A DNA stretch of 64,000 bases from a virus. Its lineage: Duplodnaviria; Caudoviricetes. The notes below the pieces were generated by a model. It was not told where the DNA came from. It ran no database searches and saw only the letters and a list, made by a program, of their open reading frames with translations. This document shows positions 19,782 through 58,400 of the stretch, piece after piece. The translations under genes were made by a program, and so were the position numbers. Position 1 is the first letter of the stretch. Each line of letters starts with the position of its first letter. The stretch lies in the IMG/VR virus record IMGVR_UViG_3300025674_000014. The stretch is one strand, 5' to 3'.

Positions 19782-20009
19782 TTAGTATGAATCTAAAGAC
19801 TTAGTAAAGTCATATTCATCAATATATTTGCTGACAAGATCTTTTGCTATTCTGAAGGTTTTATTTATTTCGTCTTTATTTGAACTGAAAATATGAACCC
19901 CGAACAAAAAAGCCGGGGTTACTTTAGTGACAGCGGAGATATACTCTCCTTCATCTTCACTCTTTCTAATTAAATAAAAAATAATATCTTGATCATTAAT
20001 TTTAGACAT
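19782..20009 (-). CDS. Hypothetical protein
   Basis: 75 aa ORF overlapping the upstream gene end. Confidence 0.45.
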   Translation of the reverse strand: MSKINDQDIIFYLIRKSEDEGEYISAVTKVTPAFLFGVHIFSSNKDEINKTFRIAKDLVSKYIDEYDFTKSLDSY

Positions 20010-20751
20010 CTAACAATTCTTGTACTAAGATTTCCTCTGCATTCCCTTTTCTTTCTGTACCAGTTTCGCTAATTGCTTTTCCTATCATTTTATCATATTT
20101 ACCTTTTCTGTGATGTAACAATACCTTTTGTCCAGGTGTTATGTTAACATCAATACCCATATCAATAAAAGCTTCTACCTTTTCATTATTAACTTCAACA
20201 TTTACACCATAACCATTCATTACAAAAATATAACCTTCTTGAGGTAAAATAGGTTCTGGTGCAGCTGCTTCAACAGTTTGAGGTACACATGATGCACATG
20301 GCTGATAAGTCGGTGTTACTACTGGTGTGCAACAAGTTGGACTAGTCATCTTAACTGTTTCATAAAAATCAATTTGACAAGATTGACTACAAGTTGGTAA
20401 AGGTGTACTATAGCACGTTGTCGGTGATGGAGGTGTACATACCGGGCTTGGATCGCATTGAGCTAAAGGCTGTACGCAATTAGTACAGCAAACGGTGGTT
20501 TGAATAGGACGATAAGCATGATTGTGTTTTTCAGGCTTAGTAAAGTTTTTACTATATGGTGACACCTTATAACCATTACATGTGTTACTACCACAGCAAA
20601 CATTAGCAGTAGAACAGCTAGATTTTAGAACATTTTGAGGTTCTATGCAATAAACAGGAGCAGCAGAAGGAGTAGGTGAAGGAGTACAACATGAAATATA
20701 CCTACTTTTGCTTTTATTTCTTCTGAAAAAACGAGATAGCCATTTAAACAT
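20002..20751 (-). CDS. Cys/Thr/Pro-rich late protein
   Basis: 19 Cys in the N-terminal two-thirds; start MFKWLSRFFRR at 20751 with TTAAATA 8 nt upstream. Confidence 0.65.
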   Translation of the reverse strand: MFKWLSRFFRRNKSKSRYISCCTPSPTPSAAPVYCIEPQNVLKSSCSTANVCCGSNTCNGYKVSPYSKNFTKPEKHNHAYRPIQTTVCCTNCVQPLAQCDPSPVCTPPSPTTCYSTPLPTCSQSCQIDFYETVKMTSPTCCTPVVTPTYQPCASCVPQTVEAAAPEPILPQEGYIFVMNGYGVNVEVNNEKVEAFIDMGIDVNITPGQKVLLHHRKGKYDKMIGKAISETGTERKGNAEEILVQELLDV

Positions 20752-20784
20752 AACGAGCATATTTAAATGGCTGTATTTTAAAAA

Positions 20785-21066
20785 TCAAGATATATTAGTA
20801 ATAATACCATTAGTAATAGTTAATGTAATGGTACTATCATCAGGTGCTTTTACTTCTAATGATTGAGTAGAACCTCTTAAATCATTAATAATAAACTCGT
20901 CAGCACTTAAAGAAATAACACTAAGGTTAGAATAACCAGTACTTAATGTTTCTATACCTGATGTTGAATTGTATGTAGAATCAATAAGGCTACCAAACTG
21001 TTCAGCTGTAGGAACATCCCCAGTTTCGAAGTAACCTTTTAATGTGCTTATACTTTCTCTTGACAT
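20785..21066 (-). CDS. Small fibre-associated-like protein
   Basis: TLKGYFETGDVPTAEQFGSLIDS motif seen at the N-termini of some fibre proteins; AATAAATA 5 nt upstream. Confidence 0.5.
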   Translation of the reverse strand: MSRESISTLKGYFETGDVPTAEQFGSLIDSTYNSTSGIETLSTGYSNLSVISLSADEFIINDLRGSTQSLEVKAPDDSTITLTITNGIITNIS

Positions 21067-21078
21067 ACTAATATTTAT

Positions 21079-21285
21079 TTAGCAGCAACAGCAGCAACTG
21101 TATGTTGCTCTTCCTGCAGTACTAGGGCAAGATGTAGCAGCACTACAAGTAGTGCAAGTCGTACAAGTCGTACCACAACAACAAGCAGCACCGCAGTTGT
21201 TAGGGTAAGTAGTTGATTCTTTTTTAGGTTTTTGGCTACTATATGATTCGCCACCGCAACAAGAGGAGTAATTACAATCGCTCAT
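21079..21285 (-). CDS. Cys-rich micro-protein (16 Cys in 68 aa)
   Basis: CC, CCC, CTTCTTC and terminal CCCCC; own AATAAATA 7 nt upstream; fills the intergenic gap exactly. Confidence 0.7.
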   Translation of the reverse strand: MSDCNYSSCCGGESYSSQKPKKESTTYPNNCGAACCCGTTCTTCTTCSAATSCPSTAGRATYSCCCCC

Positions 21286-21295
21286 ATATATCTAT

Positions 21296-23071
21296 TTATT
21301 GAACCGGGGCTGGTTCTGCGGCAGGAGCGGCACCTCCTTCAGGCGGAACTTCGCCTCCAGTTACATCAGGCCCGCCTCCTTCTGGTGGAGGACCAAAATC
21401 AGGGGGTAGGCCTGAACCGCCACCTGCGGGTATTGCACCTCCACCAGCTTCCATTCCTTCTCCCCCTTCGGCTCCACCAGAGGCAATAGCCTCTCTCCAA
21501 TTAGGACCACTAGCTTCAATCTGAGCTAATTCCCAAGTGAGTTCTTTGTCCTTGCGTAAAAATTCTCTATTAGCTTTAACTTCAATATCAGACCAACCTA
21601 AGTACTTCTTCTGAGCCCAAGTATTAGAAACAAACTCACTATTAGTTAAACTTGACCAGTTATTAACTTTAAGCTCAAGCTTTTGCTGCTCTCGCATTTC
21701 AAAGAAGTTAGAAGGTACATTAAACTCTAAATCTAAATTTAGTTCTTTTAGATTATATTTCTCCCATATCTTCTTAAGTTTAAGATGAGTTATAAAGCCA
21801 TTCTTTAATCCTGCAGCAAACTGCATTTGCATACGAATAATAAAACGAGCAAACTTAAGTTCTTCTCTTAATATATCTGTACCATCCTGAAATGATTGCT
21901 CAGGGTTTAATCTAGTTACAGGTACTTTAAGTGACTTATATAACTTCTTCATGAAGTACATTAAGTCTTCCAACTCACCTAAATTCTGACCACCAGCTAA
22001 AGTTGTAACACTTGTACCTTCACTACCTGCTCTCTTTGCAAACCAAAAAGAGTCTAGCATTGACTGAGGTGAAAATTTCATTACCTGACCACTACTATCA
22101 GTATCATATGTATGTCTACTCCAATATTTTTGCTGAAGGTTTCTTAGATAACCTTCTGCTTTAGGAGGTGACATATTACCTACATCTACATTGAATACTA
22201 ACTTCTCAGGTGCTCTTACTAATCTATATATAACAATTGCATCTTCAATGAGAGATAACTGTCTATAAGCTCTTCTAGCATTCTCTAAGTAAGGTAATCT
22301 AATTGTCTTATTATCATTCCAGATACCAGAGTTAACATATGTAACCTGATTTTTGTCCATTGGAATGAGTTGCATGTCCTCAATCTTAGTAGGATTCTCT
22401 TCATTAAAGACAGGTTTTCTTAAAAGATAACCTTGAACAATACTATTTTGAATATTACCAAAAATTGGATCGATGAGTTCGGTGGGAATTTGTACTGTAC
22501 CTAAAATACCTTCTTTTGGGTGATCTTTATGAATAATATGTTCCCAATAAACTTCACCCTCTACAAGTAATTGTCTAAAATATTCCCAACCTTTATGCTC
22601 TAAATCAAAGTAACTAATGAACTTCTGAAATTCATCTTCTAATTGCTTTTGTTCATTAGGTTTAAACTCTCTATGTAAAAATTTTAATTTTACAATCTCA
22701 CCGTTAGCATCTTTGTTTATAATCTCATCACAAATTTCATCTAATGCATCTCCAACTTCAGCAAATGCTGCCATTACTCTATAATCACGAATTCTTGCTG
22801 CTTTATCTTGCTGAATATTCGCATACATGAACTCCTGAAAGCCCTTGTCCATTGCGATATCACCAACAGCTGAATTATTAATAGGTGTAGATGATGAAAT
22901 AGATTGACGCTGTAATGCGTCTTCACGACGACTACCTTCGCCTTGAAATAGCTTATACTTAGGGTTTACGTCATTTAACGTTTCGATAGTTTGATAAGAC
23001 TGATAAGGAAGTCTGCTTTGTACATACTTCATTAACGAACGTCCAAATGTATTTTTATTTCCTGTACCCAT
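21296..23071 (-). CDS. Portal protein, T4 gp20-like
   Basis: RQLSLIEDAIVIYRLVRAPEKLVFNVDVGNMSPPKAEGY, SMLDSFW, TTLAGGQNLGELEDLMYF, ILREELKFARFI. Confidence 0.97.
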   Translation of the reverse strand: MGTGNKNTFGRSLMKYVQSRLPYQSYQTIETLNDVNPKYKLFQGEGSRREDALQRQSISSSTPINNSAVGDIAMDKGFQEFMYANIQQDKAARIRDYRVMAAFAEVGDALDEICDEIINKDANGEIVKLKFLHREFKPNEQKQLEDEFQKFISYFDLEHKGWEYFRQLLVEGEVYWEHIIHKDHPKEGILGTVQIPTELIDPIFGNIQNSIVQGYLLRKPVFNEENPTKIEDMQLIPMDKNQVTYVNSGIWNDNKTIRLPYLENARRAYRQLSLIEDAIVIYRLVRAPEKLVFNVDVGNMSPPKAEGYLRNLQQKYWSRHTYDTDSSGQVMKFSPQSMLDSFWFAKRAGSEGTSVTTLAGGQNLGELEDLMYFMKKLYKSLKVPVTRLNPEQSFQDGTDILREELKFARFIIRMQMQFAAGLKNGFITHLKLKKIWEKYNLKELNLDLEFNVPSNFFEMREQQKLELKVNNWSSLTNSEFVSNTWAQKKYLGWSDIEVKANREFLRKDKELTWELAQIEASGPNWREAIASGGAEGGEGMEAGGGAIPAGGGSGLPPDFGPPPEGGGPDVTGGEVPPEGGAAPAAEPAPVQ

Positions 23072-23075: not shown

Positions 23076-23792
23076 TTAGCATGATTGTGAACTTGACCTA
23101 GATAATGTTATACTCTTGGTTCTTGTTCTTGTAATTGTACTTGTTCTTGTTTGTGATTTAGTAACTGAAGGGGTAATACAAGATGTAGGTCGAGTACATG
23201 AATTAGTTCTAGTTACTGTATTAGTAGGGGTTTTTGTTCTTGTGCCTGTCGGTGTTGGTGTAGCATAATAGCTAACAGTTGGTGAAATTGATTTTGTTAA
23301 TGTTGGTGTAGGTGTTTGTGTTCTTGTTCTGGTTTGTGTTGGTGTTTGAGATCTTGTTCTAGTAGTTGTAGCTGATTGAGTAATAGTAGCAGTTGGTAAA
23401 GGTGTTGCACTTGGTGTCTCTGTTCTTGTTCTTGTAATAGTAGGTGTTTGAGATCTTGTTGCAGTACTTGTAGCACATTGTGTACCGGTTCTTGTTCTGG
23501 TAGTTGAATTAGTACATGTTATGGTAGGCGTAACTAATGGCGTACCAGTTCTTGTTCTTGTCTGAGTTGGTGTGCTTGTACCGGTTTGTGTAGATGTTCT
23601 TGAAAACGTATATGTAGGGGTATAAGTTTGTGAATTTGTCCTGGTTGTCGTAGGAGAAGGTGTATTACAAACTGTTGGGCTGCAAGTTACAGCTGGTATA
23701 CCATGCACATTGGCCTGAGCCCAATTAGAAGCTCTCTGAGGACCACCGTTAGCTTGTCTTATTAAATCTCTAAATGTAGGTATACCTGCCAC
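23076..23792 (-). CDS. Thr/Arg-rich low-complexity (mucin-like) protein
   Basis: Near-continuous TRTRTQTPT-type repeats after a roughly 35 aa head; CATAAATA 5 nt before the GTG. Confidence 0.7.
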   Translation of the reverse strand: MAGIPTFRDLIRQANGGPQRASNWAQANVHGIPAVTCSPTVCNTPSPTTTRTNSQTYTPTYTFSRTSTQTGTSTPTQTRTRTGTPLVTPTITCTNSTTRTRTGTQCATSTATRSQTPTITRTRTETPSATPLPTATITQSATTTRTRSQTPTQTRTRTQTPTPTLTKSISPTVSYYATPTPTGTRTKTPTNTVTRTNSCTRPTSCITPSVTKSQTRTSTITRTRTKSITLSRSSSQSC

Positions 23793-23813: not shown

Positions 23814-25175
23814 TTAAGGGTCAAATGAAGTAGTTGCAGGAAAACCAGTAGAACCTGCTTGCCAATACATTTTACCACCTATCATAGCAGTTAATGCTGA
23901 TTGTCTACTACTAATTACTTGCATATCATAACCTTTATAACCTATATCTATTTCATCTCCTTTATAAGCTGATAAATTAAACATATTAGCTACATTTGTT
24001 ATTTTATTAGCAACCCCTATAGTTCCATTACCTGCAAAATTAAGACCTATAACTTTCCATGCAGATAATGCGGGATTAGTAGAATTAAACAATGCACATA
24101 CAAAAGAACCTGAATCACCTCCTGAAGATGGAGATAAACTAGATGAATTACCTCTAAAAAATATTTGATCTTCAAATCCTAACGTCCCTACATTACCACC
24201 ATAGCTAACATTAGCTCCACCAATACTATAAGCACTTAACCTACAAGTAAAACCATAAGGATCACTACCAGGCCAACCTACAGGACCCTCAGTTCTACCA
24301 GATCTAAATACAGGAGCACCTAACTCGGTGGTTAATAATGAATTTATTTCTGAATCAGTAGCCCAATCCATAGGCTGACTTATATCTAATTGATATTGCT
24401 GCCAGTTAGTAGATGAACCCGATAAATTAAGAGTATGTGTACCAGATAATGCAAATGAACAAACATCAACTCTATTACCAGAAGATTTAAAAGGGTAAGC
24501 TTTTTTAACAGTACCCACAGTTAAAGGTTGCATTAACGATTGTGTAACTGTAAATTTATCATACGTAGATCTTTGATATACCGGGTATCTGTCATCACCA
24601 GGTGAAGAAGTCGTATCGTTAACTGAAAGATATGTCCAAAAAGTTAAACCACTATCGTTAGTAAAAGCTCCTCCTAAATCACCAGCTAAAGTATTTTTAC
24701 TTAAAACGTGATTGTTACTAACTCCTACAATAGTGTAATCTTCTAAATCAACAGCTAACCCACCCAATGTACCGGTATCAACTGAACTTCCTCCCCAGCC
24801 ATCCGGAGGTACAGTACCAACTGATATACCACCTACTAATGGTCTATGTTCTACTCTACTACCACTAACAGGCATTAACCAAGTACTTTGAGGAGTAGAT
24901 GGATCTGGTAAAGTATAACACCCGGTTGCTGATAAAGAAGGTACTTCCACAACATCCGTTGCATAAGTTACACCATCTACTTCAACTGAAGATGGAAATA
25001 AATCCTCTTGAGGTATATCACTTAAAGGTAACTTCTTTTCAACAAATAAAGTTAAACAAGGCTGTTGGGTTTCAACACCTTGAACTTCTTTTTTTGAAAC
25101 AACAACACCATTCCAGTTGACGTTAGAATCAAAAAGTTGATTTGCTTTTATAGTTAAATTATCAATATTACTCAT
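23814..25175 (-). CDS. Trypsin-fold serine protease (Nal1-like architecture)
   Basis: GTLGG...SNNHVL (His), NRVDVC (Asp), FRSGRTEG, GGDSGS (Ser), VIGLNFAG; N-terminal pro-domain LFVEKKLP...TDVVEV. Confidence 0.8.
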   Translation of the reverse strand: MSNIDNLTIKANQLFDSNVNWNGVVVSKKEVQGVETQQPCLTLFVEKKLPLSDIPQEDLFPSSVEVDGVTYATDVVEVPSLSATGCYTLPDPSTPQSTWLMPVSGSRVEHRPLVGGISVGTVPPDGWGGSSVDTGTLGGLAVDLEDYTIVGVSNNHVLSKNTLAGDLGGAFTNDSGLTFWTYLSVNDTTSSPGDDRYPVYQRSTYDKFTVTQSLMQPLTVGTVKKAYPFKSSGNRVDVCSFALSGTHTLNLSGSSTNWQQYQLDISQPMDWATDSEINSLLTTELGAPVFRSGRTEGPVGWPGSDPYGFTCRLSAYSIGGANVSYGGNVGTLGFEDQIFFRGNSSSLSPSSGGDSGSFVCALFNSTNPALSAWKVIGLNFAGNGTIGVANKITNVANMFNLSAYKGDEIDIGYKGYDMQVISSRQSALTAMIGGKMYWQAGSTGFPATTSFDP

Positions 25176-28100
25176 CGTAGTATCTTACATAAATCTGATT
25201 AGCATGTGATGTAGGTGTCTTAGTTTTAGTAGGGGTTTGAGTTGCAGTTCTTGTAGGTGTTACCGTTGGTGTAGGAGTTAGAGTACCTGACTGAGTAGCA
25301 GTCCTGGTTTGAGTAGGGGTAGGTGTAACAGGTACGGTTGGTCTAGAATTTTTATAGGGGTGATTAGAAGGTAAACTAGAAACTAAACCCCACTTCCAAG
25401 CAAGATACCCCTCTGCTTTTTCAATAGTAGAAATATCAGTACCCGATGTACCAGGTAATTGACCAGCAGCAAAAAATTCAGCTAATCTACCATCTAGTTC
25501 CTGTGATGCTCTATTACGGAATAACCTAAGCTGTTGATTAGTTGAAATGCTATTTGTATAATCATTAACCGGGGTAAATGCATTAGAACCATTAACTCTA
25601 ACTGAAATTTGATTACCTGTTTTATTAAAATTAGATGCAATTATAGTATAATTATATCTAGTAACGCTTTGTAAATTCCATGATTGCAAGTTACCTATAG
25701 TATTAGAAATTCTACCAGAACTTAATCCATCTAAGTCTAATTCACCTGGCCAAGTATTAGAACTGCTAGCAGAACTTATTGCATAATCTCGTTTTGGTGA
25801 TTGATTTGTTTCGTAGGACCAGAAAGAATCTTGTGAATTATTAGTTGTATCGTATCTAAATACCCCTATAGCCCAATGGTTACCAGACGAAACCTGGCTA
25901 CTATAACCAGTACTTTGTAGGTACTCATTACTACCATTAAATGTAAATACATTAAGACTATTCTGGTTGTTAGTAGTAGTTGGTGTACCTCCTACCGTCA
26001 TTGTGTAAGTACCGGCTTTATCCGTTACAGACGTTAAAATACCTCCCGAGCTAGACCAACTTGATGTATCACTTGCATCAATCCAAGATACTAAATTACT
26101 TAAATCATCGGGCGCCCAATTAGCTCCAACTGTAGTGGGGGTAGGGGTTTGCGTACCTGTTCTAGTTTGGGTCGGTGTTTGGGTTTTAGTATTGGTTCTA
26201 GTTTGGGTGGGGGTCTGAGATCTAGTTTGAGTGTTTGTTCGTGAAGGTGTTTTAGTTTGAGTAGCTGCTGGTGTACCTGTACTGGTACTAGTGGGGGTAG
26301 GGGTTTGTGTACCTGTTCTAGTTTGAGTTTTAGTTCTGGTAGGTGTTACAGCAGGAGATGTAAAGTATATATTACCATTTCTAAACGTACCGTAATACCA
26401 AGTAGAAGAAGGAGCAAATTGTATTCTAAAAGTATCTCCCGTATAACCGTTATAAGAGTAACTAACAACAGATTTTATACTACTATCTAAGTAAACATAC
26501 ATTGTATCAAACGCAGGCCCACCAGTTAAATCTGTATCAAATTCAAAAACATCACCAGCAGAAGATTGGAAAGTAACCCCATTAGCACTTGGATGTGGAG
26601 CTGAACCGGTACCGGTTAAACTATTATTAAATGTACGTAAAGGTGTTTGGGTATTTGTTACTGTATTAGTTGGTGTGGTGGTTGGTGTTTGGGTTGTCGT
26701 TGGTGTTTGAGTTCTACTTCTGGTATTAGTAGGTGAAGGAGTTCTAGTTGATGTTTTAGTTGAGGTGCTTGTTGGTGATTGTGTAGGGGTAGGTGTGGTA
26801 GTTGGTGTCTGAGATGCGGTCCTTGTATTAGTAGGGGTAGGTGTTAACCCTGGTGTATTAGATGAAGTTTGTGTTGGTGTCTGTGTATTTGTATTTGTAG
26901 GTGTAGGTGATTGACTATTTGTTCTAGTTTGGGTAGGTGTTTGGGTTCTACTTCTAGTATTAGTGGGTGTTCTAGTAGCAGTAACACCTGGTGTATCAGT
27001 CGAACTTGGAGTCCTGGTAACTGTAGGTGTTACTGTAGGACTAACAGATGCTGTTGGTGTGTTGGTAGAAGTTGAAGTATTTGTAGGGGTAATAGTTGGT
27101 GTATTTGTTCTTGTTCTAGATTGTGTTGTAGTTCTTGTATTAGTAGGAGTTGGGGTAATAGGACCTAAACTAAATCTAGGACGTAAAACGTTATAAGTTG
27201 AAACTATACTATCTTGGCTTAAAGCTATACCGGAATATGTTTTAATAATAGCTATATCAGCATCTAAATTAGAGTTATTACCTGAAAACCATTTCATTGG
27301 TGTGCTATTAGTAATAATACCAGAAGGTCTATTAGCTTCTGATATTGCTCTTATAGCACCATCAACATAAATTCTTAGTTTTGTAGAATCAGCTACAAAT
27401 GCAACTTGATGCCAGCTATTATCATTATAAGTTAAACTCGTTCTAGCAAAAATTTCATTACCGTCATTGTCTTTTTCCCAAAAGTCTAATTTACCTGCAT
27501 TAACAGTGTCTCCTGAGCCTCTAACACCCATCATGAAATAACAAACATTAGCTTGATTATTATAATCGGTTACTATAGGCACTGTATATGAAGATGCTGA
27601 AGAACTTATGTTTGATCTAACTCTAATCCAAAATATAAAAGTATAAGGGTATCTATTTTGTATAGGACCAGCTTCGGTTCTAGGAATTGCAGTATTTTTA
27701 GCTAATTGATAACCACAAACCATACAATCTGTAGATCCATTTAAACAAAAATGATTTGACGGTCCAAAGTATGTCACATATTGAGGGGAACCACAAATGT
27801 ATAAATCATTATTTCTTCTTACATCACAAAATATATTACCGGAACCAGGGTAACTGTAAATGTTAGAAGCATCTACTTGCATAGTTAAATGACAGCAAGA
27901 ATAAGAAGCTTGAGTAGAAGTTCTTGTTTTAGTTGGGGTTGCTGTATAGGTGTTAGATGCAGTTCTAGTTGGGGTTGCAGTGGTAGCATTTCTAGTACGA
28001 GTACAAGTAGGTGTAGCTGTTGTAGCCATCCTAGTTGGTGTATAAGAAATTGTCGCAGTCTGTGAAGGTGTAAACGTTGGTGTTCTTGTTTGAGTTCTAG

Positions 28101-30174
28101 TTTCGGTAGGAGTATTACCTGGTGTAACCGATTGGGTAGATGTTCTAGTACTAGTGCGTGTTTGTGTTGGTGTTCTAGTCGGGGTCCTTGATCTGGTTTG
28201 AGTTGTTGTTCTTGTATTAGTTGGTGTTTGGGTTGCTGTTCTGGTATGGGTCCAGTTTCTGGTATTAGTTTGAGTGTTGGTAGGTGTTGTCGTAGGAGTG
28301 CTTGTAGAAGTTTTTGATAAAGTTATAGATTTTGTTTGAGTAGGTGTACCTGTAGGTGATGACCCGAAGGTAGGTGTTTGAGTCTGCGTAGGGGTTTGTG
28401 AAATAGATACTGTAATAGTTGCTGTATTAGTAGGTGTTCTAGTCTGGGTAGGGGTTTGAGTTACTTCAGGTAAATAAAATCTATGTTTTATGTTATTAAA
28501 ACTTTGCAATACTTGAGCAGTACTTAAAGCCTTTTCATAGACTTTAACGATAGCCATTTGTCCGTCAAAATTACCCGTACTATTAACAACGCTACCCAAT
28601 TTAGGGCTAACACTACTACTATAATCATACGTATCTGTAGTAGATAAATTAGTTACACCGTTTATATAAAGTCTAGAAGTTCCTGAAGACCTAACTAAAG
28701 CAAATTGATACCAGTAGCCGGTTTGTAAAGTAAAGCTTGTATCTTGTGTCCAACCTAAAGAAGGATTGTAATAAGAAAAGTAGTTATTATAAAAACCAAA
28801 AGTAAAATCTCCTGCAGTGTTATTGAAGTTAGATAAAAGTACAGATGAACCGTTATTTAAACTGTAAATTTTAGCCCATATAATATAACTAAAATCATTT
28901 GTACTTAAAGATGTTATATTGCTGCTGCTAATATCAATACTACTTCCCTGATCAAAAGTAAAGTTTTTAATAGAAGAGGGTGTTGAACCTGAATTATAAA
29001 AAACATCACCGCTTAGAGAACCGTTATTAGTATTTGAAGTTAAATCTGTCCATTGATTAGCTGTACCGGTGGACGAACTATTGTCGGCATCCAAATACAT
29101 TATTAACCCTTCAGTTAATGAACCTGTACTAGTACGGGTAATAGTATTTGTAGGTGTGGGGCTGTTGCTACTTGTTCTTGTTGATGTATGTGTGTTAGTT
29201 GGTGTCTTACTTGTTGTTGGTGTATTAGTAGATGTTACATCTGGTGTACCGGTTGGTGTGGCAGTATTAGTAGGGGTACGAGTAGCGGTTTCTGATGCAT
29301 TGGTAGTAGGTGTAATAGAGCTAGTTCTAGAAGGTGTTTTAGTATGAGTAACTTCAGGTGTCTGTGTTTGTGATGAAGTTTGTGTAGGTGTATAAGATGG
29401 TGAAGGAGTTTGGGTAGCTGTATTAGTGGTGGTTTGAGTTTGAGTAGAAGTATTAGTTGGGGTTTGAGTTTGAGTGCCTGTTTGTGTTCTTGTTAAAGTT
29501 TGAGAAGGTGTTGGTGTTAATGTTGTGGTATTAGTTGTAGTTGATGTAACCGTTACAGTGGGTGTAGGTGATGAACCTGTAGTAGCAGTAGATGTAACTG
29601 TACTTGTACTTGTTCTTGTAGCTGTATTTGTATTAGTTGGTGTTCTAGTCGGGGTGGGTGTATTGGTTGCAGTACCGGTAGGTGCTGGTGATGACCTTTC
29701 TGGTGTCTTTGTTGTATTAAGAGATTGAATATAAAAAGGGTAATCACTATTAATTGACGGAAATACATTATAGCCACCAGGACTGGTAATAAGAAACTTA
29801 AACTCACCTGTTGCAATACCAGATAAAGCTCCAAGACCCACTTGTACGGTATTTGATGTATAATCAAAAAATACATCACAACCTAAATCTAAAGCATTAT
29901 AAGCACTAAATGCAGGGTAAGTAGAAGATAATGATGGAATATCAGAGTAATAAGTTACACTACTTAAATTAACCGTTGAGAGAGAGTTGGGGATAAATGA
30001 AGATGGGTTAGAGCTGCTCAAATAAACCTGATAAGTCGAAGCTTTCCCTAAGCTGTTACCTGCACCGCCTCTAGTAAAAGGTATTTTAAAAACAAACGAT
30101 TTTTCATACTCACTGTAAATCAGTTTGTTAATTTGATTATTATTAATTAAAAGTTTTTGTCCAAATCTCTTCAT
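25168..30174 (-). CDS. Giant Thr/Pro-repeat protein with LamG/ConA-like domains (fibre/glycoprotein)
   Basis: Long TPT/TRT tracts separating GLIMYLDAD..., LTMQVDASN...YPGSG and WAPDDLSNLVSWIDASD...YLAWKWG domains. Confidence 0.8.
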   Translation of the reverse strand: MKRFGQKLLINNNQINKLIYSEYEKSFVFKIPFTRGGAGNSLGKASTYQVYLSSSNPSSFIPNSLSTVNLSSVTYYSDIPSLSSTYPAFSAYNALDLGCDVFFDYTSNTVQVGLGALSGIATGEFKFLITSPGGYNVFPSINSDYPFYIQSLNTTKTPERSSPAPTGTATNTPTPTRTPTNTNTATRTSTSTVTSTATTGSSPTPTVTVTSTTTNTTTLTPTPSQTLTRTQTGTQTQTPTNTSTQTQTTTNTATQTPSPSYTPTQTSSQTQTPEVTHTKTPSRTSSITPTTNASETATRTPTNTATPTGTPDVTSTNTPTTSKTPTNTHTSTRTSSNSPTPTNTITRTSTGSLTEGLIMYLDADNSSSTGTANQWTDLTSNTNNGSLSGDVFYNSGSTPSSIKNFTFDQGSSIDISSSNITSLSTNDFSYIIWAKIYSLNNGSSVLLSNFNNTAGDFTFGFYNNYFSYYNPSLGWTQDTSFTLQTGYWYQFALVRSSGTSRLYINGVTNLSTTDTYDYSSSVSPKLGSVVNSTGNFDGQMAIVKVYEKALSTAQVLQSFNNIKHRFYLPEVTQTPTQTRTPTNTATITVSISQTPTQTQTPTFGSSPTGTPTQTKSITLSKTSTSTPTTTPTNTQTNTRNWTHTRTATQTPTNTRTTTQTRSRTPTRTPTQTRTSTRTSTQSVTPGNTPTETRTQTRTPTFTPSQTATISYTPTRMATTATPTCTRTRNATTATPTRTASNTYTATPTKTRTSTQASYSCCHLTMQVDASNIYSYPGSGNIFCDVRRNNDLYICGSPQYVTYFGPSNHFCLNGSTDCMVCGYQLAKNTAIPRTEAGPIQNRYPYTFIFWIRVRSNISSSASSYTVPIVTDYNNQANVCYFMMGVRGSGDTVNAGKLDFWEKDNDGNEIFARTSLTYNDNSWHQVAFVADSTKLRIYVDGAIRAISEANRPSGIITNSTPMKWFSGNNSNLDADIAIIKTYSGIALSQDSIVSTYNVLRPRFSLGPITPTPTNTRTTTQSRTRTNTPTITPTNTSTSTNTPTASVSPTVTPTVTRTPSSTDTPGVTATRTPTNTRSRTQTPTQTRTNSQSPTPTNTNTQTPTQTSSNTPGLTPTPTNTRTASQTPTTTPTPTQSPTSTSTKTSTRTPSPTNTRSRTQTPTTTQTPTTTPTNTVTNTQTPLRTFNNSLTGTGSAPHPSANGVTFQSSAGDVFEFDTDLTGGPAFDTMYVYLDSSIKSVVSYSYNGYTGDTFRIQFAPSSTWYYGTFRNGNIYFTSPAVTPTRTKTQTRTGTQTPTPTSTSTGTPAATQTKTPSRTNTQTRSQTPTQTRTNTKTQTPTQTRTGTQTPTPTTVGANWAPDDLSNLVSWIDASDTSSWSSSGGILTSVTDKAGTYTMTVGGTPTTTNNQNSLNVFTFNGSNEYLQSTGYSSQVSSGNHWAIGVFRYDTTNNSQDSFWSYETNQSPKRDYAISSASSSNTWPGELDLDGLSSGRISNTIGNLQSWNLQSVTRYNYTIIASNFNKTGNQISVRVNGSNAFTPVNDYTNSISTNQQLRLFRNRASQELDGRLAEFFAAGQLPGTSGTDISTIEKAEGYLAWKWGLVSSLPSNHPYKNSRPTVPVTPTPTQTRTATQSGTLTPTPTVTPTRTATQTPTKTKTPTSHANQIYVRYYDE

Positions 30175-47177: not shown

Positions 47178-47185
47178 TATTTATG
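47178..47185 (-). promoter_or_regulatory. Late promoter CATAAATA
   Basis: 5 nt before ATG 47172; the downstream sod is coupled by an ATGA overlap. Confidence 0.65.
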
Positions 47186-49142: not shown

Positions 49143-50819
49143 TTATTCTACAACAGGTAATTGAAAATTAAAATTTTCTTTAAAAGGAAACCATGATACA
49201 TCTAATGTATCATAATCACATGCACTACAACGGAAGGATTCCCAACAAAGAACGGGTCTTTCATTTAATTTAAAATTATCGTCAAATATATTACCTATAG
49301 GTTGATAATGAGGCATAGCTGAATAATCAAATAATTTTGATCTATCTATTGCACTCATACATGTAAAAACATTACCATCTGAATCTATATTAATACGTCT
49401 CATTCCTGCTGCACAATATGTAGGTTTTCTTCCTTTTATATCAGTTAAGTTTTCTAATTTATAAGAGTTAGATATACTTTCTATCTTTACTTCTTTTTGA
49501 TCTAATACTTCATCACCATCCATAGAAGGAACATTACTATATACAAAATTATCTAAATGTGGATCCACTAAACCATGTTTGTTAGAAAAATCAATAATTC
49601 GTTGAGGGTCAACTAATTTTAGGTTATCGGGATGTAAAACCATTTCAATACCTATTCTATTTTTATGTACATTTTTTAATGTGAAAAATTCTTCTAATTT
49701 ATTGAAAAAATCATCTGGGTGATCCCATTGTGTGGGGTGAATACTAAAAGCACAATAATCCCATCTAGAAAAATCGACATCTTTCCATTCATCTAAAATA
49801 AATGTTTTACCAAAATTTGAAGTCATATCAAATCTTGTATAATTATCAATAAGGTTAGTTAATGTAGGTAAACCTTTAAACAAAGAAGGTTCCCCTCCTG
49901 TAAAATAAATTTTTCTAGGTCTAATTTCATTAATTTTTTCAGCCCATTGTTCAACAGGTATGTCAAATCTAGATTTAAGTTTTCTATAAATGGATTTAGC
50001 TGACTCTTGCCAACAATAACCGCATTTCATATTACATTTCCAAGTAACAAACCATTGAATAGCTAATGGTATTGTATTAGCTACTTGAATGCTTTTCTTT
50101 AGGTTATTTTCACTTTCTTCATCTTTTAACTGCTCTAAACCTAAAAAGTCAAAATAATTCTCTCTATTAATAATACTTTTTACATCAACATTACCGGGAG
50201 ATGAAAGTTGTAGTTCAAAGTCTTCATTAAAATCTTCGTCATGTATCTCATAAGATACTGATCTTTCTCCACCTGAATAAATTTCAACTGACTCTTTTCT
50301 ATTTTGAGTTTCAATTGTCAATCTTGTTCGTTTTTCTTGATGTAATATATAAATTATGTCAATAAATTTTGACTTTAATTTTTCAGGTTTATATACGTTA
50401 AATTTTATATCATCGTCAATAAAAAAATCTGAAGCTTGAAAAGCTAACTCTTTAATAAAATCTCTATCTTCAGATATATAATCTATACATTCAAATCTTA
50501 TATTATTAAAATATATATTTTCTACAAATTCTTTATCTTGTTCTTGTATTAAATCGTGTAAGTTAATAGGTATTTTATAATAATGCCAACCAGGGTTAAT
50601 ATTTAATTCTTTAGCAATAATATCATATTTTTCTACATGCGGATAATATATTATAATTTTTTTACTTTTAGCAGTACCGATATTGAAATATAAAAATCTT
50701 TTATTGTCTGAATTTTCAAAAAATAAACTACAATTTTTACTTGCCCATCTAAAATTACGGCCTGTATCATCCTGTTCAATTATATCCCAACCAGCTGTGA
50801 AATTTTTATCGTTCATCAT
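49143..50819 (-). CDS. Radical SAM protein with a SPASM/twitch-like C-terminus
   Basis: CNMKCGYC, YFTGGEPS, CAAG...IDSDGNVFTC...C...CSAC; extra N-terminal GW..E...FRW domain. Confidence 0.85.
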   Translation of the reverse strand: MMNDKNFTAGWDIIEQDDTGRNFRWASKNCSLFFENSDNKRFLYFNIGTAKSKKIIIYYPHVEKYDIIAKELNINPGWHYYKIPINLHDLIQEQDKEFVENIYFNNIRFECIDYISEDRDFIKELAFQASDFFIDDDIKFNVYKPEKLKSKFIDIIYILHQEKRTRLTIETQNRKESVEIYSGGERSVSYEIHDEDFNEDFELQLSSPGNVDVKSIINRENYFDFLGLEQLKDEESENNLKKSIQVANTIPLAIQWFVTWKCNMKCGYCWQESAKSIYRKLKSRFDIPVEQWAEKINEIRPRKIYFTGGEPSLFKGLPTLTNLIDNYTRFDMTSNFGKTFILDEWKDVDFSRWDYCAFSIHPTQWDHPDDFFNKLEEFFTLKNVHKNRIGIEMVLHPDNLKLVDPQRIIDFSNKHGLVDPHLDNFVYSNVPSMDGDEVLDQKEVKIESISNSYKLENLTDIKGRKPTYCAAGMRRINIDSDGNVFTCMSAIDRSKLFDYSAMPHYQPIGNIFDDNFKLNERPVLCWESFRCSACDYDTLDVSWFPFKENFNFQLPVVE

Positions 50820-52728
50820 ATACCTTTCTTATAATTTGTTCTGCATGGTCTTTTTTAGGTACACCCCAAAGATGTAAGCTATCATACCATTTATTAAATT
50901 CACCCATATTTTTAACGTTTTTAATATTATAATTTATTAAGTATGGGTAATCTTTACCTAAAAAATCTTCCTGACCTCCATATGCATTAGTTGCAATTTT
51001 TTTACCATAATTATAAGCTTCATGTAGAACTAATCCAAAAGCTTCACCTCTATGCATACTAAAATAGCAATCACCAACGCTATGAAAAGATTGCAATTCT
51101 TTTTGAGATAATTTTTCTACTATTATAAAAATATTTGGTTTTATTATATATTCATTTAATTTATCTAAAACATATTTTTTATTTTCTTCTGTATAATCTT
51201 TATAGTGAGTTTTTATTAAAAATTGTACATCTTTGTTGTTATTAAAAACTTTATCAAAAACTTCTAAAGAATCTATTATACCTTTTCTTTCATTAAATTC
51301 ACTTATATTATAAAATGTAAATTTGTTATTATCTAATTTTTTACCATCTATAGAAACGATATTAACATCATCTATATTAGGTAATTCTTCTTTAAAAAAT
51401 AAATGAGGTTTTATTTCAATTGGTACGGTAATGCCGCTTTCAATATAAACTCTTTTATTATATTCGGAAGGTACCTGAAGCAAATCTACATTTTCGTTAA
51501 TTAAAGGTACCCATGAATGATGTAATGTTTCAGTTTCCCAAACCGAATAACCAATTACCTTTGTATCTTTAAATGTTTCTCCATATACTTCTCTATATGA
51601 AGGCCAAAGATCTGGTGTACAATGTAAATAAATTTCATCATATTTCAAATCAGTATGCTCTATTTGTAACCCCTTACAAATTAAATCTAATTCTGTTCTA
51701 CATTCAACACTTTGATCAAATTTTAAAGGTAACCAATCAACATGATGACCTTGTTTGTAAAAATCGTATATATAACCTTTTGCTGCTTTAGCATAACCAC
51801 TAGTACCGGATTGACCGATATAAAATATTTTCTTTTTATTGGATTTTATAGTAACTGTATTAGGTTCATTTAATTTTTTAAAACCATTTTTTCTTAAAAA
51901 GAAATCAACATCAGAAAAGTTACAATTTTCACCATTTTTAAAAATTAAACTATTATCTCTAAAGTATTGACAGTTTGATACCCATGTATCGGTTTCCTGA
52001 ATACAATTCTTTTTTAAACCTTCAGCTAGTGAATAACAAAAAGATTGGTTACCTATAAAAACCGCACATTCGGAAATAATATTAAAAACATCAATTAATT
52101 TAGGTGTTTCTATATAATTTACTTCACCAAATCTGTTACAAAAATCTTCATATTCTTCTTTATGACCAACAAATCGTATATTTTTATTAAAGTTAGAAAC
52201 TATTTCAGTCCATGGAAATTTATCATTATGGTATTTTAATGATCTGTTTACTACAATAAATTCAGATTGAGATATTTTATTTGTTAGCCATTTGTTACGA
52301 CAGACAGTAGTTGGTACTTTTAGTAAATTTGAAAAAAGAGTCGAAATATTTGTATGTCTTAATTTATCAACTTCATTATCATTTAATTTATTATTATTCC
52401 AATCAATAAATCTATTTTTAAATTGATTTAAGTCAATAGCATTTTCAGGTAATGTTTCAGAAAAATAAACATTTTTTATATAAGACTGTTGAAGTAAAAT
52501 TTCAGATAATTGATTTACTAAATTTTCATCTAAAACTTTATAATTAGGGAATTTATTAAATTGACCCCCTATATATAAATTACCACCACCTAAATATTTT
52601 ATAGAAGGTAGGCTGTATATAATATCCCCTAGTTCGCCACAAATATAAAAATCATTTTGATTTTTATTATTTTTAGCCTCCGCGGTTAATTTTTTTTTTA
52701 TTCTTTTTACTAAGATACCAGGCATCAC
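50806..52728 (-). CDS. Fused glycosyltransferase: GT9-like N-half plus GT4-like C-half
   Basis: GELGDIIYSLP...FIGNQSFCYSLAEGL; GTSGYAKAA, YSVWET, ERKG, HRGEAFGLVLHEA. Confidence 0.75.
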   Translation of the reverse strand: MMPGILVKRIKKKLTAEAKNNKNQNDFYICGELGDIIYSLPSIKYLGGGNLYIGGQFNKFPNYKVLDENLVNQLSEILLQQSYIKNVYFSETLPENAIDLNQFKNRFIDWNNNKLNDNEVDKLRHTNISTLFSNLLKVPTTVCRNKWLTNKISQSEFIVVNRSLKYHNDKFPWTEIVSNFNKNIRFVGHKEEYEDFCNRFGEVNYIETPKLIDVFNIISECAVFIGNQSFCYSLAEGLKKNCIQETDTWVSNCQYFRDNSLIFKNGENCNFSDVDFFLRKNGFKKLNEPNTVTIKSNKKKIFYIGQSGTSGYAKAAKGYIYDFYKQGHHVDWLPLKFDQSVECRTELDLICKGLQIEHTDLKYDEIYLHCTPDLWPSYREVYGETFKDTKVIGYSVWETETLHHSWVPLINENVDLLQVPSEYNKRVYIESGITVPIEIKPHLFFKEELPNIDDVNIVSIDGKKLDNNKFTFYNISEFNERKGIIDSLEVFDKVFNNNKDVQFLIKTHYKDYTEENKKYVLDKLNEYIIKPNIFIIVEKLSQKELQSFHSVGDCYFSMHRGEAFGLVLHEAYNYGKKIATNAYGGQEDFLGKDYPYLINYNIKNVKNMGEFNKWYDSLHLWGVPKKDHAEQIIRKVYDER

Positions 52729-53561: not shown

Positions 53562-53582
53562 ATATTAATTTAAGTTACTAAA

Positions 53583-54332: not shown

Positions 54333-54338
54333 ATTATT

Positions 54339-54366
54339 ATTATAGTATAGACAACTAACTCTTCAA
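54339..54366 (-). promoter_or_regulatory. Sigma70-type promoter TTGAAG-N16-TATAAT
   Basis: -10 ends 6 nt before the queE ATG; overlaps the divergent phoH late promoter region. Confidence 0.65.
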
Positions 54367-54382
54367 GCATAAATACTTGTAT

Positions 54383-55967: not shown

Positions 55968-55996
55968 ACCTTATACTAAGATATGTTCCGTTTCTT

Positions 55997-56302
55997 TCAA
56001 CTCTTTTTCTTTTTAAACGGTCTAGGACACTTAGTTCCTTTAACATGGGTATGACCACATCTACCGCAATAAGTAGCTTTTTTAGCCTCTAATAAAGCAT
56101 CTTTACTAATATATTGTGAGGCTATTTCATCCATTTTAGATTTACCAGCTTGGTTAAGAGCTATAGCTACTGCTTGTTTCTGAGCTTTATTTTTAGAAGA
56201 AGGTTTACTAGTACCTATTTTACCTTTTTTCTTATAGGATCCCATAAGCTCACTAATGTTATCACCTATAATCTTGTCTGTTTTACCTTTCTTAAGCGGC
56301 AT
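55997..56302 (-). CDS. Small Lys-rich protein
   Basis: MPLKKGK...NISEL...QKQAVAIAL; C-terminal CGRCGH...C. Confidence 0.65.
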
Positions 56303-56741
56303 TTTTTAATACTTTCTTATATAATGTAGTTAAATCTTTATCCGATAGACCACTTTGTTTTAGATATACTTCAATATCTTCAATATCGTTAGTATTCTTT
56401 ATTTGTTCCATAACTTTATTATCTAATTGTTTAGATAATTTTTTAGCAATAAACTTCTTAAACATTTTTACAGCTCCTGGTTTATTAGGTGTTATTACTG
56501 GTTTCTTTACACTAAAAATACCTGGCATTGAACCACCTGGCATTAAAACTTTTAGCAAAGGAGGTATACCACCGACCATTGGTCCACCACAAGCCTCGTT
56601 TGTAAGTTCATGTAAAACAAACCCTTCATAACTTTCACTCTCTTCAAAGCCCTGATTAAGAGTTGGATCTACTTTGAACCTAATATACCTTAACCCTTTG
56701 CTCTTTAAGCACTCGGTTAATATACTGTCAAAGTCTTTCAT
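56292..56741 (-). CDS. Hypothetical late protein
   Basis: TTAAATA 7 nt upstream; leader [10 protein letters not shown]. Confidence 0.6.
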
Positions 56742-56751
56742 ACATTAGTAT

Positions 56752-57819
56752 TTAATCAGATTTGTAATTGATTACGTCAAGTAGGGTTGTATAAAATGGT
56801 TTCTTACTGTTACCATGATAACAAGGTTCACCTTCATGACCGTGATTCCAGTTATCGAACCAAAATAGATTATAACCATGAATTTGAGATATAATACTAT
56901 AATAAGGTTCCTCAGTAAACGGAACTAAATCATGTTCATCAGTAAACCTGTTAAATATTTTCATATATAAAGGTAGTATAACATTATCTAGTTCTTCAAA
57001 TTTACCTCCAAAGAAAGTACCTACTGTCCAGGCAGGGTATTCCTGATTAACATCAGGTGCATTTACACAAGTTTTTATATTGAAAATCTTTTTGTTTGGA
57101 TTATCATTACCCCACCTTCTATTACCTACTTCCCAATCAAATAGTTCTTTAAATATTAAACTTGTTTTTACACCGAAATCTTCCCAATCAGCTTCTGATA
57201 ATCTATCGTTTTGTTGATCTTGGGTGATAAAAAACCAATCTTTATCTTCAAATATACGTTTTATACCGTCAGTAATTTTTTCGTTAAAAATATTATTTTT
57301 ATTTTCAGGCCAAAAATGTGAATCAGGGTATTGTTCGTCAAGTTGGTGTGGGTATACATATTCTGCACCACCTAATGATAAAGGAATTTTACACCATTCA
57401 GATACACCAGCATCAATCCAAAAAACCCTATCACAACCCCATGGGTTATCTTTTGCCATACTACACCATTTTAACTTCCAATGGCAAAGTAATTCATTTC
57501 TTGGTGCATAAATCATTTTACGTTTATTACCTTCATGATCTACATCGTGCCAAATAAATTTGTTTTTAGTTTCTAAAATTTCATATGATCTTGGCCATTC
57601 AAATAAATCTAAACCAATAACTTGAAAATCTTTCCAAAAAGGTTTTAACCATTCGGTTATTTGATCAACCATATGAGGCCAGCAATATAATTGCATTGGC
57701 ATATTAAGCTTAGATAAATTTTTTAAGGAACCTACATATAAAGCCTCGTCATTATCCTTACCACCCATTACCCAATCGGATCTACCATTGTAAACACATG
57801 TAACTAAAACCGGTTTCAT
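56752..57819 (-). CDS. HtrL/WlaTC-like glycan-modifying protein
   Basis: LVTCVY, K...C.MAK.NP, VFWIDAG, GTFFGG, TEE motifs. Confidence 0.65.
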   Translation of the reverse strand: MKPVLVTCVYNGRSDWVMGGKDNDEALYVGSLKNLSKLNMPMQLYCWPHMVDQITEWLKPFWKDFQVIGLDLFEWPRSYEILETKNKFIWHDVDHEGNKRKMIYAPRNELLCHWKLKWCSMAKDNPWGCDRVFWIDAGVSEWCKIPLSLGGAEYVYPHQLDEQYPDSHFWPENKNNIFNEKITDGIKRIFEDKDWFFITQDQQNDRLSEADWEDFGVKTSLIFKELFDWEVGNRRWGNDNPNKKIFNIKTCVNAPDVNQEYPAWTVGTFFGGKFEELDNVILPLYMKIFNRFTDEHDLVPFTEEPYYSIISQIHGYNLFWFDNWNHGHEGEPCYHGNSKKPFYTTLLDVINYKSD

Positions 57820-58400
57820 ATCATTTCGTATTTTAAAAACTCAAAATCCTCTTTATAATAATTGTTTAAAAGATCTAATGTTTCTCTTTTTATCTCACTA
57901 ACTAACTCAGATGTATTTATACTACTCTTATTCTCATGAGGTAAACTTGGAGAGAAATTGTTTGAAGTTGCTAGTAACTCAAAATCTTCCTTTAAATTTT
58001 CAAATCTTAATATCTGACTATAAACTATATTGTTATTAAAATATCTCTTTTGTGGTAAATTATGGTCTGTTATAGCTAAAGGAATTCTGGTAACAAAATT
58101 ATGAAATTTATCTGGTGTAAATTCACCCTCTCTATATATAAACTCAGATATCATTTTTGTATAAGGGTTTCTTACTATGGTAAATTTTTTACTGTTTTTG
58201 TACAATTCTGGGTAATGTTGTTCAATTAAATCTGGAGTAAAATGCTGAGGAGCAAATATTATATTGTTATAACGTTCTTCAGTATAGGTAAAACATTCAT
58301 CTCTATTTTGTTTATCTATTCCAAACTTCTTTTCAATTGAAGAACCACCGGTTTTAGGTATATGTACAAATAGTAAGTTGTAATCTAAAAGGAATGGCAT
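57816..58400 (-). CDS. Sulfotransferase family 2 protein
   Basis: FVHIPKTGGSSIE (5'-PSB), FTIVRNPY (3'-PB), RFENL, YYKEDFEFLKY; TTAAATA 6 nt upstream. Confidence 0.88.
   Translation of the reverse strand: MPFLLDYNLLFVHIPKTGGSSIEKKFGIDKQNRDECFTYTEERYNNIIFAPQHFTPDLIEQHYPELYKNSKKFTIVRNPYTKMISEFIYREGEFTPDKFHNFVTRIPLAITDHNLPQKRYFNNNIVYSQILRFENLKEDFELLATSNNFSPSLPHENKSSINTSELVSEIKRETLDLLNNYYKEDFEFLKYEMI

Follow-up and report, generated by a model that had tools for sequence, protein, structure and literature searches.

Mucin-like tracts rich in threonine (Thr) and proline (Pro) are strongly linked, across phages, to a gene for a glycosyltransferase (GT) of family GT60 (PF11397). The tracts considered here are encoded in the window, that is, the whole 64-kb stretch of DNA analysed from IMG/VR record IMGVR_UViG_3300025674_000014, which comes from an uncultured T4-like myovirus with a GC content of ~32%. 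Beside its portal gene, the window encodes a 238-residue (aa) protein built of such tracts and a 1668-aa protein in which they alternate with folded domains; it also carries an operon of eight sugar genes and a second sugar-gene island. The tracts of this phage are probably O-glycosylated by phage enzymes, and it is a possibility a little short of even that at least part of the enzyme set of the window takes part in this. The likeliest contributor from the window is most plausibly the late pair formed by an HtrL-like protein and a sulfotransferase. We infer the glycan itself, the acting enzymes and the virion location of the carriers from sequence.

The phage is distant from cultured ones. Baseplate, clamp-loader, gp15 and portal genes are recognised in the window, and the portal shares only 30-33% identity with its counterparts in cyanophages, Pelagibacter phage HTVC008M and Aeh1; a megablast search of the region against isolate phages returned no match. 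The IMG/VR fragment G001 is 96-97% identical to the window over positions 20000-46300. The contigs of the closest relatives are 20-32% complete. Two complete genomes, G012 and G020, have portals 58-62% identical to that of the window, and the fragments G013, G015 and G016, as well as G014, fall in the same range.

Association of mucin-like tracts with GT60

GT60 enzymes put alpha-linked N-acetylglucosamine (GlcNAc) on Thr of Thr-rich mucins, after which beta-linked galactose (Gal) is added at O-4 (PMC3769586, PMC8724618). IMG/VR contains 354-375 relatives of the phage GT60 protein, and the verified phage GT60 shows the DSH and FHGEE motifs. No prior description of GT60 in phages, or of mucin-like phage fibres, was found in the literature.

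A mucin-like stretch was defined as 30 aa with at least 10 Thr, at least 2 Pro and at least 17 residues of Thr, Ser and Pro together. This combined criterion was adopted since an earlier Thr-tract measure falsely flagged the beta-rich fibre proteins of the cyanophages S-T4 and ACG-2014f. Regions of 10 kb on either side of a GT60 gene or a control gene were then scored for at least 60 mucin-like residues. Such an amount is present at 74 of 130 distinct GT60 loci and at 7 of 80 control loci (Fisher p = 4e-13, a value that overstates independence, as the loci are related and no correction for relatedness was applied). The 80 control loci were centred on the ConA-like module that also ends the 1668-aa protein, which biases the controls upwards. 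The tract gene often ends exactly at the start of the GT60 gene. All complete GT60-positive genomes (5/5) have 616-2177 mucin-like residues; among genomes that lack GT60, there are none in G007, S-T4 and ACG-2014f, 130 in G012 and 1638 in G008.

Relatives of the same clade show how the association is organised. A true GT60 is encoded in G014 (250 bits), where a Thr-tract gene starts ~1.5 kb upstream of it, and in G020 (243 bits). In G020, the genes for a baseplate wedge and two large structural proteins come first, followed by those for Thr-tract proteins of 156 and 480 aa and for a further 480-aa protein; then come GT60, FkbM, three genes of no assigned function, a second FkbM, an HtrL_YibB fusion and one further unassigned gene. 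Large structural genes and Mtd_N-type fibre genes follow, so that the whole operon lies within the baseplate/tail-fibre module. A 554-aa protein of G020 has a true HtrL_YibB domain (PF09612, 57 bits). In the complete sister genome G012, the flanking structural genes are kept, while the tract proteins and the GT60 operon are both missing. The tract proteins and the GT60 operon travel as one indel cassette inside the tail module.

In G012 and in the fragments G013, G015 and G016, tracts are virtually absent, and the sugar enzymes of the window are all missing. G011 and G018, whose portals are at least 80% identical to that of the window and whose contigs reach far enough, have the same GT operon, the HtrL-like gene and the sulfotransferase. 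Elsewhere in IMG/VR, homologues of window enzymes stand beside GT60: GT10-like at 13 loci and HtrL-like at 9, in both cases directly after GT60, GT9-like at 5, GT7C-like at 4 and STELLO-like at 2.

A further observation concerns G008, an unrelated 270-kb T4-like phage in which several large proteins (C1:9528-17372, 71873-82606 and 268867-270381) together hold upwards of 1600 residues of nearly perfect (TPSITA)n repeats. It encodes two GT11 homologues, but GT60 was not detected; this may point to another initiating enzyme in this phage.

Thr-tract proteins of the window

The Thr-tract proteins and their neighbours are encoded by the following genes:

20002..20760, minus strand: Cys/Pro/Thr-rich protein, 252 aa, downstream of the portal (7.5% Cys, 9.9% Pro, 9.1% Thr)
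21296..23071, minus strand: T4-type portal, gp20 (PF07230, 357 bits)
23076..23792, minus strand: stand-alone Thr-tract (TxT) protein, 238 aa (33% Thr; TAAATA 5 nt before the start)
23814..25175, minus strand: trypsin-like (Nal1-like) serine protease, 453 aa, between the two Thr-tract genes (phrog_20754 'protease', E 5e-18)
25168..30174, minus strand: 'beads-on-a-string' protein, 1668 aa (Laminin_G_3, 84 bits; start overlaps the gp15 stop)
30174..30971, minus strand: gp15-like tail sheath stabiliser, heading the unit of gp15, 1668-aa protein and protease (PF16724, 74 bits; TAAATA 6 nt before the start)

An earlier sequence-only reading of the window had placed two Thr-rich proteins and a Cys/Pro/Thr-rich protein on the flanks of the portal, and both the compositions and the PF07230 match bear this out. 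An N-terminal domain (aa 1-146) opens the 1668-aa protein (23% Thr overall), which also comprises two LamG_3 domains, a small domain, a C-terminal ConA-like module (aa 1364-1603) and five Thr tracts. The tracts, of 64-215 aa, lie at aa 147-361, 563-767, 992-1200, 1258-1363 and 1604-1667. In each, Thr makes up 31-41% and Pro 10-16% of the residues, only 1-5 residues are acidic, and the net charge is basic; long tracts of this kind, in which Thr, Ser and Pro dominate and hydrophobic and acidic residues are scarce, qualify as mucin-like. Their register is TxT, where x is P, Q, R, N or S, and only degenerate short periodicities are present; the Thr codons are mixed (ACA 129, ACT 106, ACC 63, ACG 8). 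Mixed codons and degenerate periodicities indicate that the tract composition is maintained, rather than being the product of recent slippage.

The N-terminal domain of ~146 aa in this protein is conserved in all close relatives. The C-terminal 240-aa module is modelled as a ConA-like jelly-roll fold (pLDDT 90), and its best fold match over both lengths is the tailspike of cyanopodophage Pan3 (TM 0.65/0.59). Clostridial neurotoxin binding domains lead the fold search; at 8-15% identity, they share only the common ConA-like jelly-roll and carry no toxin meaning. More than 259 IMG/VR contigs encode the module, in most cases as a separate protein of ~280 aa, and a tblastn search with it against isolate phages gave no match. 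In G001, a strain with 96% identity, the gene (L127:3891-7904) lacks aa ~1334-1650 (window 25171-26270), so that the module and a flanking tract have been lost in frame. Among close relatives, the gene encodes from 279 to 2075 aa. In-frame loss in G001, this range of lengths and the stand-alone form of the module suggest that the tracts act as joints for module swapping.

The 238-aa protein is strongly basic (27 Lys and Arg vs 2 Asp and Glu) and begins with a conserved leader of ~35-45 aa. An all-tract protein is kept (~235-284 aa, or 592 aa in L130) in those relatives with portal identity of at least 80% whose contigs reach upstream of the portal; the same contigs, L130 excepted, have a variable tract protein before the portal. 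For the 252-aa Cys/Pro/Thr-rich protein, no Pfam or PHROG family was found, and homologues occupy the equivalent position in G010 and G011. A small Cys-rich open reading frame (ORF) right after the portal (21079-21285, minus strand) has a late-type motif of its own.

Between the two tract genes, the 453-aa protein matches NAL1_N weakly (E 0.011), and a GDSGS motif can be read in it. In the distant G008 (C1:76235-82606; portal ~30% identical), Thr/Pro-repeat genes likewise stand on both sides of a Nal1-like protease gene, and the G012 version of the protease (C1:67499-70618) is embedded in a 1039-aa protein that includes a poly-Thr run. These arrangements suggest that the protease and the tract proteins are functionally connected.

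In G010, whose portal is 92% identical to that of the window, two further Thr-tract proteins of 709 and 839 aa are encoded to the left of the window start (C1:12946-17591), the second with a chitin-binding CBM_14 domain. Because this pair sits downstream of the baseplate wedge gene, tract proteins of the subclade also occur in the baseplate module.

Late motif and timing

The hexamer TAAATA stands 4-8 nt before the start codon in 19 of 72 genes, compared with 0.3 expected. These are mainly genes with recognisable or likely structural products, and examples are those starting at 23792, 30971, 21066, 21285, 19763, 12163 and 58400. The hexamer resembles a late motif of the T4 type that has next to no leader. 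A late motif of the TATAAATA type precedes the start of both the 238-aa gene and the gp15 unit, which runs via overlapping stops into the 1668-aa gene and then into the protease. From these late motifs and their position in the structural module, we infer that the Thr-rich proteins are located on the virion.

Of the sugar genes, 14 of 15 have no such motif. It is found only before the sulfotransferase, which heads the sulfotransferase/HtrL pair, exactly as the sequence-only reading had noted.

Sugar genes of the window

The eight-gene operon, from its first large gene onwards, comprises:

41032..41835, minus strand: beta4GalT-like GT-A enzyme GT7C-b, first large operon gene (Glyco_transf_7C, PF02709, 46 bits, and Glyco_tranf_2_2; no late motif)
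40220..41044, minus strand: GT10-family enzyme, alpha1,3/4-fucosyltransferase-type (PF00852, 30.5 bits vs a cut-off of 23.9)
39438..40223, minus strand: GT11-family enzyme, alpha1,2-fucosyltransferase-type (PF01531, 83 bits vs 23.9; phrog_2644, E 1e-41)
38632..39459, minus strand: beta4GalT-like GT-A enzyme GT7C-a, paralogue of 41032-41835 (Glyco_transf_7C, 39 bits, and Glycos_transf_2, 30 bits)
37952..38644, minus strand: 'GT9-like' candidate protein, 230 aa (homologues in G010, G011, G018 and S-T4, where there are two copies, and near GT60 in 5 loci)
37315..37950, minus strand: putative sugar O-methyltransferase, 211 aa (RMNT_CmcI, E 0.015, below cut-off; homologues in G011, G018 and S-T4)
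36515..37318, minus strand: GT-B-type protein, 267 aa (PF13524, Glyco_trans_1_2, 29 bits vs a cut-off of 25; S-T4 gene 30% identical)
35580..36521, minus strand: STELLO/RGP-like (GT75-like) protein, 313 aa, last operon gene (Atlas feature score 0.98-0.99 to PF03385/PF03214 clusters)

The best solved relatives of GT7C-b are beta-1,4-galactosyltransferases 1 and 7 (E 1e-5), and those of GT7C-a are beta4GalT7 and beta4GalT1 (E 4e-3). These matches to the metazoan enzymes in the PDB span only ~40-90 C-terminal residues; the N-terminal half is GT2-like, and a DVD motif can be read. The GT11 enzyme covers profile positions 34-280 of 298 and shares ~30% identity with its homologues in 100 phage records, which come almost entirely from cyanophages. 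The GT10 match is marginal (113 of 182 profile positions), and the 35% identical homologue in S-T4 is consistent with it. Neither Pfam, NCBIfam nor PHROG gave a match for the 230-aa 'GT9-like' protein, and no Pfam match was obtained for the STELLO/RGP-like protein, which is 56% identical to a 'putative membrane protein' of S-T4.

The second sugar-gene island (47181-58400) contains:

47181..48158, minus strand: extended short-chain dehydrogenase/reductase (SDR), a GDP-sugar 4,6-dehydratase, previously read as Gmd (PF16363, 217 bits)
48232..49137, minus strand: NodZ/FUT8/O-FucT-like GT-B protein, 301 aa (Atlas features 0.95-0.96 and structure TM 0.60-0.66 to NodZ/FUT8_N_cat clusters)
50806..52728, minus strand: protein with a C-terminal GT4 domain, 640 aa (PF00534, Glycos_transf_1, 36 bits; phrog_2170, E 6e-15)
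56752..57819, minus strand: HtrL-like protein, 355 aa, coupled to the sulfotransferase (Atlas features 0.97-0.98 to PF09612 clusters)
57816..58400, minus strand: sulfotransferase, 194 aa (PF03567, Sulfotransfer_2, 45 bits vs 22; TAAATA 6 nt before the start)

Most of the enzyme identities in the sequence-only reading hold: the GT11, GT10, two Glyco_transf_7C, Glyco_trans_1_2, GT4 and sulfotransferase assignments all score above the Pfam cut-offs, and the sulfotransferase also matches phrog_3347, 'galactose-3-O-sulfotransferase' (E 3e-20). The STELLO-, NodZ- and HtrL-like proteins stand on look-alike scores of 0.95-0.99 but have no Pfam match, which in the case of the HtrL-like protein extends to E 10. 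Look-alike clusters of the HtrL-like and NodZ-like proteins are common in Nucleocytoviricota in the Atlas comparison. The GT9-like and methyltransferase labels are weakly supported, as no significant family match was found for either.

The assignment of Gmd is not secure. Against the gmd equivalog TIGR01472, the SDR scores 132 bits, where the cut-off is 415, and its best PDB match is GDP-D-glycero-D-manno-heptose 4,6-dehydratase (7US5, 203 bits), followed by Rmd (142) and true Gmd (~100-114). A GDP-fucose synthase (Fcl/WcaG) was not seen, this SDR being the single extended one among 20 proteins scanned in the two sugar-gene stretches. Because the SDR is not a secure Gmd and no GDP-fucose synthase was seen, the term 'fucosyl' is better replaced by 'GDP-6-deoxy-sugar (fucose or deoxy-heptose)'. 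Judging from these matches, fucose may not be the donor sugar; a 6-deoxy-heptose or a different GDP-6-deoxy sugar may take its place.

No transmembrane or signal segment was found in any enzyme or Thr-tract protein of the window, and both groups are therefore predicted to be cytoplasmic, which is where the virion is assembled.

Several other genes lie in or near the second island. The 7-deazaguanine genes queE-like, queD (PTPS) and folE (GTP cyclohydrolase I) are interspersed with it at 53583-54332, 55284-55967 and 58452-59108, and are also conserved in G011, G012, G018 and G020. The GT4 gene is flanked by a radical-SAM protein of 558 aa (49143-50819) and a DUF1796 putative papain-like peptidase (52725-53561). 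The former has weak viperin/MoaA-like matches at aa ~250-330 and a large N-terminal part without assignment. Two genes on contigs that extend the window rightward (L023:7182-7793 and L024:774-1304) have weak Pfam matches, one to a CTP_transf_like nucleotidyltransferase and one to a HAD phosphatase; together with the GDP-heptose-dehydratase-like SDR, their products could be part of a heptose-nucleotide pathway. A 253-aa protein at 60375-61136 (plus strand) has an N-terminal hydrophobic signal-like segment and a beta-barrel-like composition, resembling that of outer-membrane proteins, and no Pfam family.

Proposed glycosylation and alternative explanations

In the favoured explanation, the Thr tracts would be extended stalks and would, at the same time, accept O-glycans that phage enzymes attach in the host cytoplasm. 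A soluble polypeptide alpha-GlcNAc-transferase of the GT60 type, encoded outside the window, would put GlcNAc on Thr. Phage enzymes would then extend and cap this sugar, at least some of them from the window and foremost the late HtrL-like/sulfotransferase pair. The beta4GalT-like, GT10, GT11 and NodZ-like enzymes may join in, using a GDP-6-deoxy sugar (fucose or 6-deoxy-heptose) supplied via the SDR dehydratase. One carrier would be the 1668-aa fibre, with three ConA/LamG lectin-like domains strung on Thr stalks and co-transcribed with gp15; the other would be the all-stalk 238-aa protein encoded just before the portal. The outcome would be a glycan-coated fibre set on the virion with an adhesive or shielding role. 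It is tempting to go further and envisage a complete mucin-type glycocalyx on neck and baseplate fibres, with alpha-GlcNAc, beta4-Gal, a GDP-6-deoxy-sugar (fucose or 6-deoxy-heptose), sulfate or methyl caps and Lewis-like epitopes, in which the tract DNA serves as a recombination joint for lectin modules; in this full form, the proposal is unlikely to be correct.

Several results weigh against glycosylation of the tracts by enzymes of the window. No PF11397 and no other recognised protein-O-glycosyltransferase was found among the candidate ORFs of the window that were scanned. PF11397 was likewise not found in the 20-32% complete contigs of the closest relatives. It is absent from G001-G011, G013 and G015-G019, mostly fragments in which absence means little (G001 covers window positions 20000-46300 only), and a second GT60 scan, seeded from the portal-linked lineage L282, produced no contig tied to the subclade of the window. 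Tracts and GT60 also occur apart from the other components: G008 has abundant PSITAT-type tracts and no detectable GT60, and G020 and G014 have both tracts and GT60 and no detectable homologue of the window operon. The eight-gene operon has no late motif. For the N-terminal 'anchor' domain of the 1668-aa protein, AlphaFold prediction from 7 sequences was poor (pLDDT 50).

Counter-evidence also comes from the isolate Synechococcus phage S-T4, which has seven of the eight operon genes and neither mucin-like tracts nor GT60. Identities to the window are 56% for the STELLO-like protein, 35% for GT10, 30% for Glyco_trans_1_2, 29% for the GT9-like protein, 29% for GT11, 28% for the methyltransferase-like protein and 23% for GT7C. 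In S-T4, the cassette is interleaved with genes for phosphoheptose isomerase (GmhA), heptose kinase/ADP-heptose synthase and a cytidylyltransferase, and adjoins psbA-type genes. Given that S-T4 lacks tracts and GT60, the eight-gene operon is a mobile cassette that works without mucin-like substrates, at least in this phage. The expectation in the sequence-only reading that Thr repeats and the GT set go together is therefore borne out in relatives with portal identity of at least 80%, which have both, but fails in S-T4. Its proposal of a coat of fucosylated, sulfated O-glycans gains from the tract/GT60 link in relatives, while the window provides no initiating transferase and the supply of GDP-fucose is unsupported.

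This cassette is the basis of a divided scheme, in which the tracts are glycosylated only by a GT60-led late operon outside the window, and the eight-gene operon and second island form a mobile cassette for another acceptor. The cassette would build a heptose/6-deoxy-sugar glycan, and the acceptor would most likely be a host envelope glycan. Beyond the tract-free S-T4 cassette amid heptose genes, with its identities of 23-56%, the scheme draws on the closeness of the SDR to GDP-heptose 4,6-dehydratase, on the missing late motif of the operon, and on the GT60 operons of G020 and G014, which have FkbM and HtrL genes of their own; cyanophage clusters of this sort are usually read in this way and have been published as cell-surface modification (PMC12801897). 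Yet a host-surface role has been read without tests even in cyanophages, and no lipid-carrier priming transferase, flippase, ligase or membrane protein is found among the sugar genes of the window. A cassette common to phages as distant as these (portals ~32% identical, GC 32% vs 39%) would fit an acceptor supplied by the phage better than a host-specific lipopolysaccharide (LPS), and GT10-, GT9- and GT7C-like genes adjoin GT60 elsewhere. On balance, such a division of labour is improbable, though it deserves to be taken seriously.

It is also conceivable, if somewhat unlikely, that no protein is glycosylated at all, the tracts being bare, extended, protease-resistant spacers and recombination joints, and the transferases acting on host glycans. 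Pro/Thr linkers function unglycosylated in many bacterial enzymes. The deletion in G001, which takes out the C-terminal lectin module and the tract beside it in frame, the variation from 279 to 2075 aa among close relatives, the mostly stand-alone form of the module (~280 aa) elsewhere and the long tracts of G008 without a detectable GT60 would all be expected of such spacers. What they would hardly explain is the tight linkage of GT60 and tracts, including their gain and loss together as one cassette, and characterised GT60 enzymes act on just such Thr-rich sequences. As for DNA hypermodification by the transferases, in the manner of T4 glucosylation of hydroxymethylcytosine, glycosylation of DNA by T4-like and other phages is cited in PMC12619734 and PMC12801897. 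The queD, queE and folE genes interspersed with the second island would be in keeping with it. To our knowledge, however, GT10/GT11/GT7C-type enzymes and sulfotransferases have no role on DNA. No hydroxymethylase was seen in the window, and the linkage involves Thr-tract proteins and structural genes rather than replication genes, which makes this explanation highly improbable.

Relation to known systems and significance

Glycosylation of the tracts by phage enzymes has its closest enzymatic counterpart in protists. The GT60 enzymes TcOGNT2 of Trypanosoma cruzi and Gnt2 of Dictyostelium belong to the same family, PF11397, as the enzymes of the relatives of the window phage, and the acceptors in both cases are Thr-rich and contain Pro. 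The next step in protists, addition of beta-Gal to O-4 of GlcNAc, matches the beta4GalT-like enzymes of the window. In contrast to the protist proteins, which are Golgi membrane proteins, the phage homologues, none of which was found in the window, lack an N-terminal hydrophobic anchor and would act in the bacterial cytoplasm.

Two other systems combine similar elements. The serine-rich-repeat adhesins of Gram-positive bacteria (GtfA/GtfB) have Ser/Thr-rich stalks, O-GlcNAc added in the cytoplasm, dedicated extending transferases and a lectin-like binding region; initiation is by a pair of GT4 enzymes, and export is by accessory Sec. They resemble the proposed phage system in their glycosylated stalks and lectin-like region, and are bacterial rather than viral. 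In giant viruses, virus-encoded sugar-nucleotide enzymes and transferases coat the virion surface, as with the chlorovirus capsid and the fibrils of mimivirus. These viruses differ from the window phage in their eukaryotic hosts and in the linkages and carriers of the glycan.

According to PMC12619734, which cites Freeman et al. 2023, virion glycosylation is established only for mycobacteriophages (Che8, Corndog and Myrna). In these, cytoplasmic glycosyltransferases of the phage put shielding O-linked glycans on its own virion proteins, as is proposed here. In mycobacteriophages, which infect actinobacteria, the glycans were demonstrated by experiment and sit on short C-terminal tails of the capsid and tail-tube subunits. 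Here, where the genes for capsid and tail tube fall outside the stretch studied, the candidate acceptors are hundreds of Thr-tract residues on fibre-like proteins, and the linked initiator is GT60.

Carbohydrate clusters of cyanophages have been read as modification of the host cell surface or of DNA, without tests (PMC12801897). The 'LPS-type' clusters of T4-like cyanophages (S-T4, ACG-2014f, S-SCSM2R and P-SSM2) are the nearest in gene content, with the seven matching operon genes in S-T4 and a cluster of Gmd, epimerase, GT11, GT6 and GT25 in ACG-2014f. They differ from the window in that S-T4 and ACG-2014f have neither mucin-like tracts nor GT60, and in that their clusters stand amid auxiliary genes of the photosynthesis type.

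If the tracts are indeed glycosylated, a 'eukaryote-type' mucin initiator, GT60, would be at work in bacterial viruses and would provide soluble enzymes for the preparation of mucin-like glycopeptides. With glycosylated tracts, virion glycosylation would no longer be a peculiarity of mycobacteriophages and giant viruses, but would be widespread among the abundant aquatic phages that have not been cultured; more than 350 IMG/VR contigs carry GT60. S-T4, as a cultured phage with the same cassette, offers a direct handle on a question of long standing, namely the targets of the 'LPS-like' clusters of marine cyanophages. For the phages themselves, possible consequences of glycosylated tracts are a changed stickiness to marine gels or host capsules, protection from proteases and grazers, and a different antigenicity.

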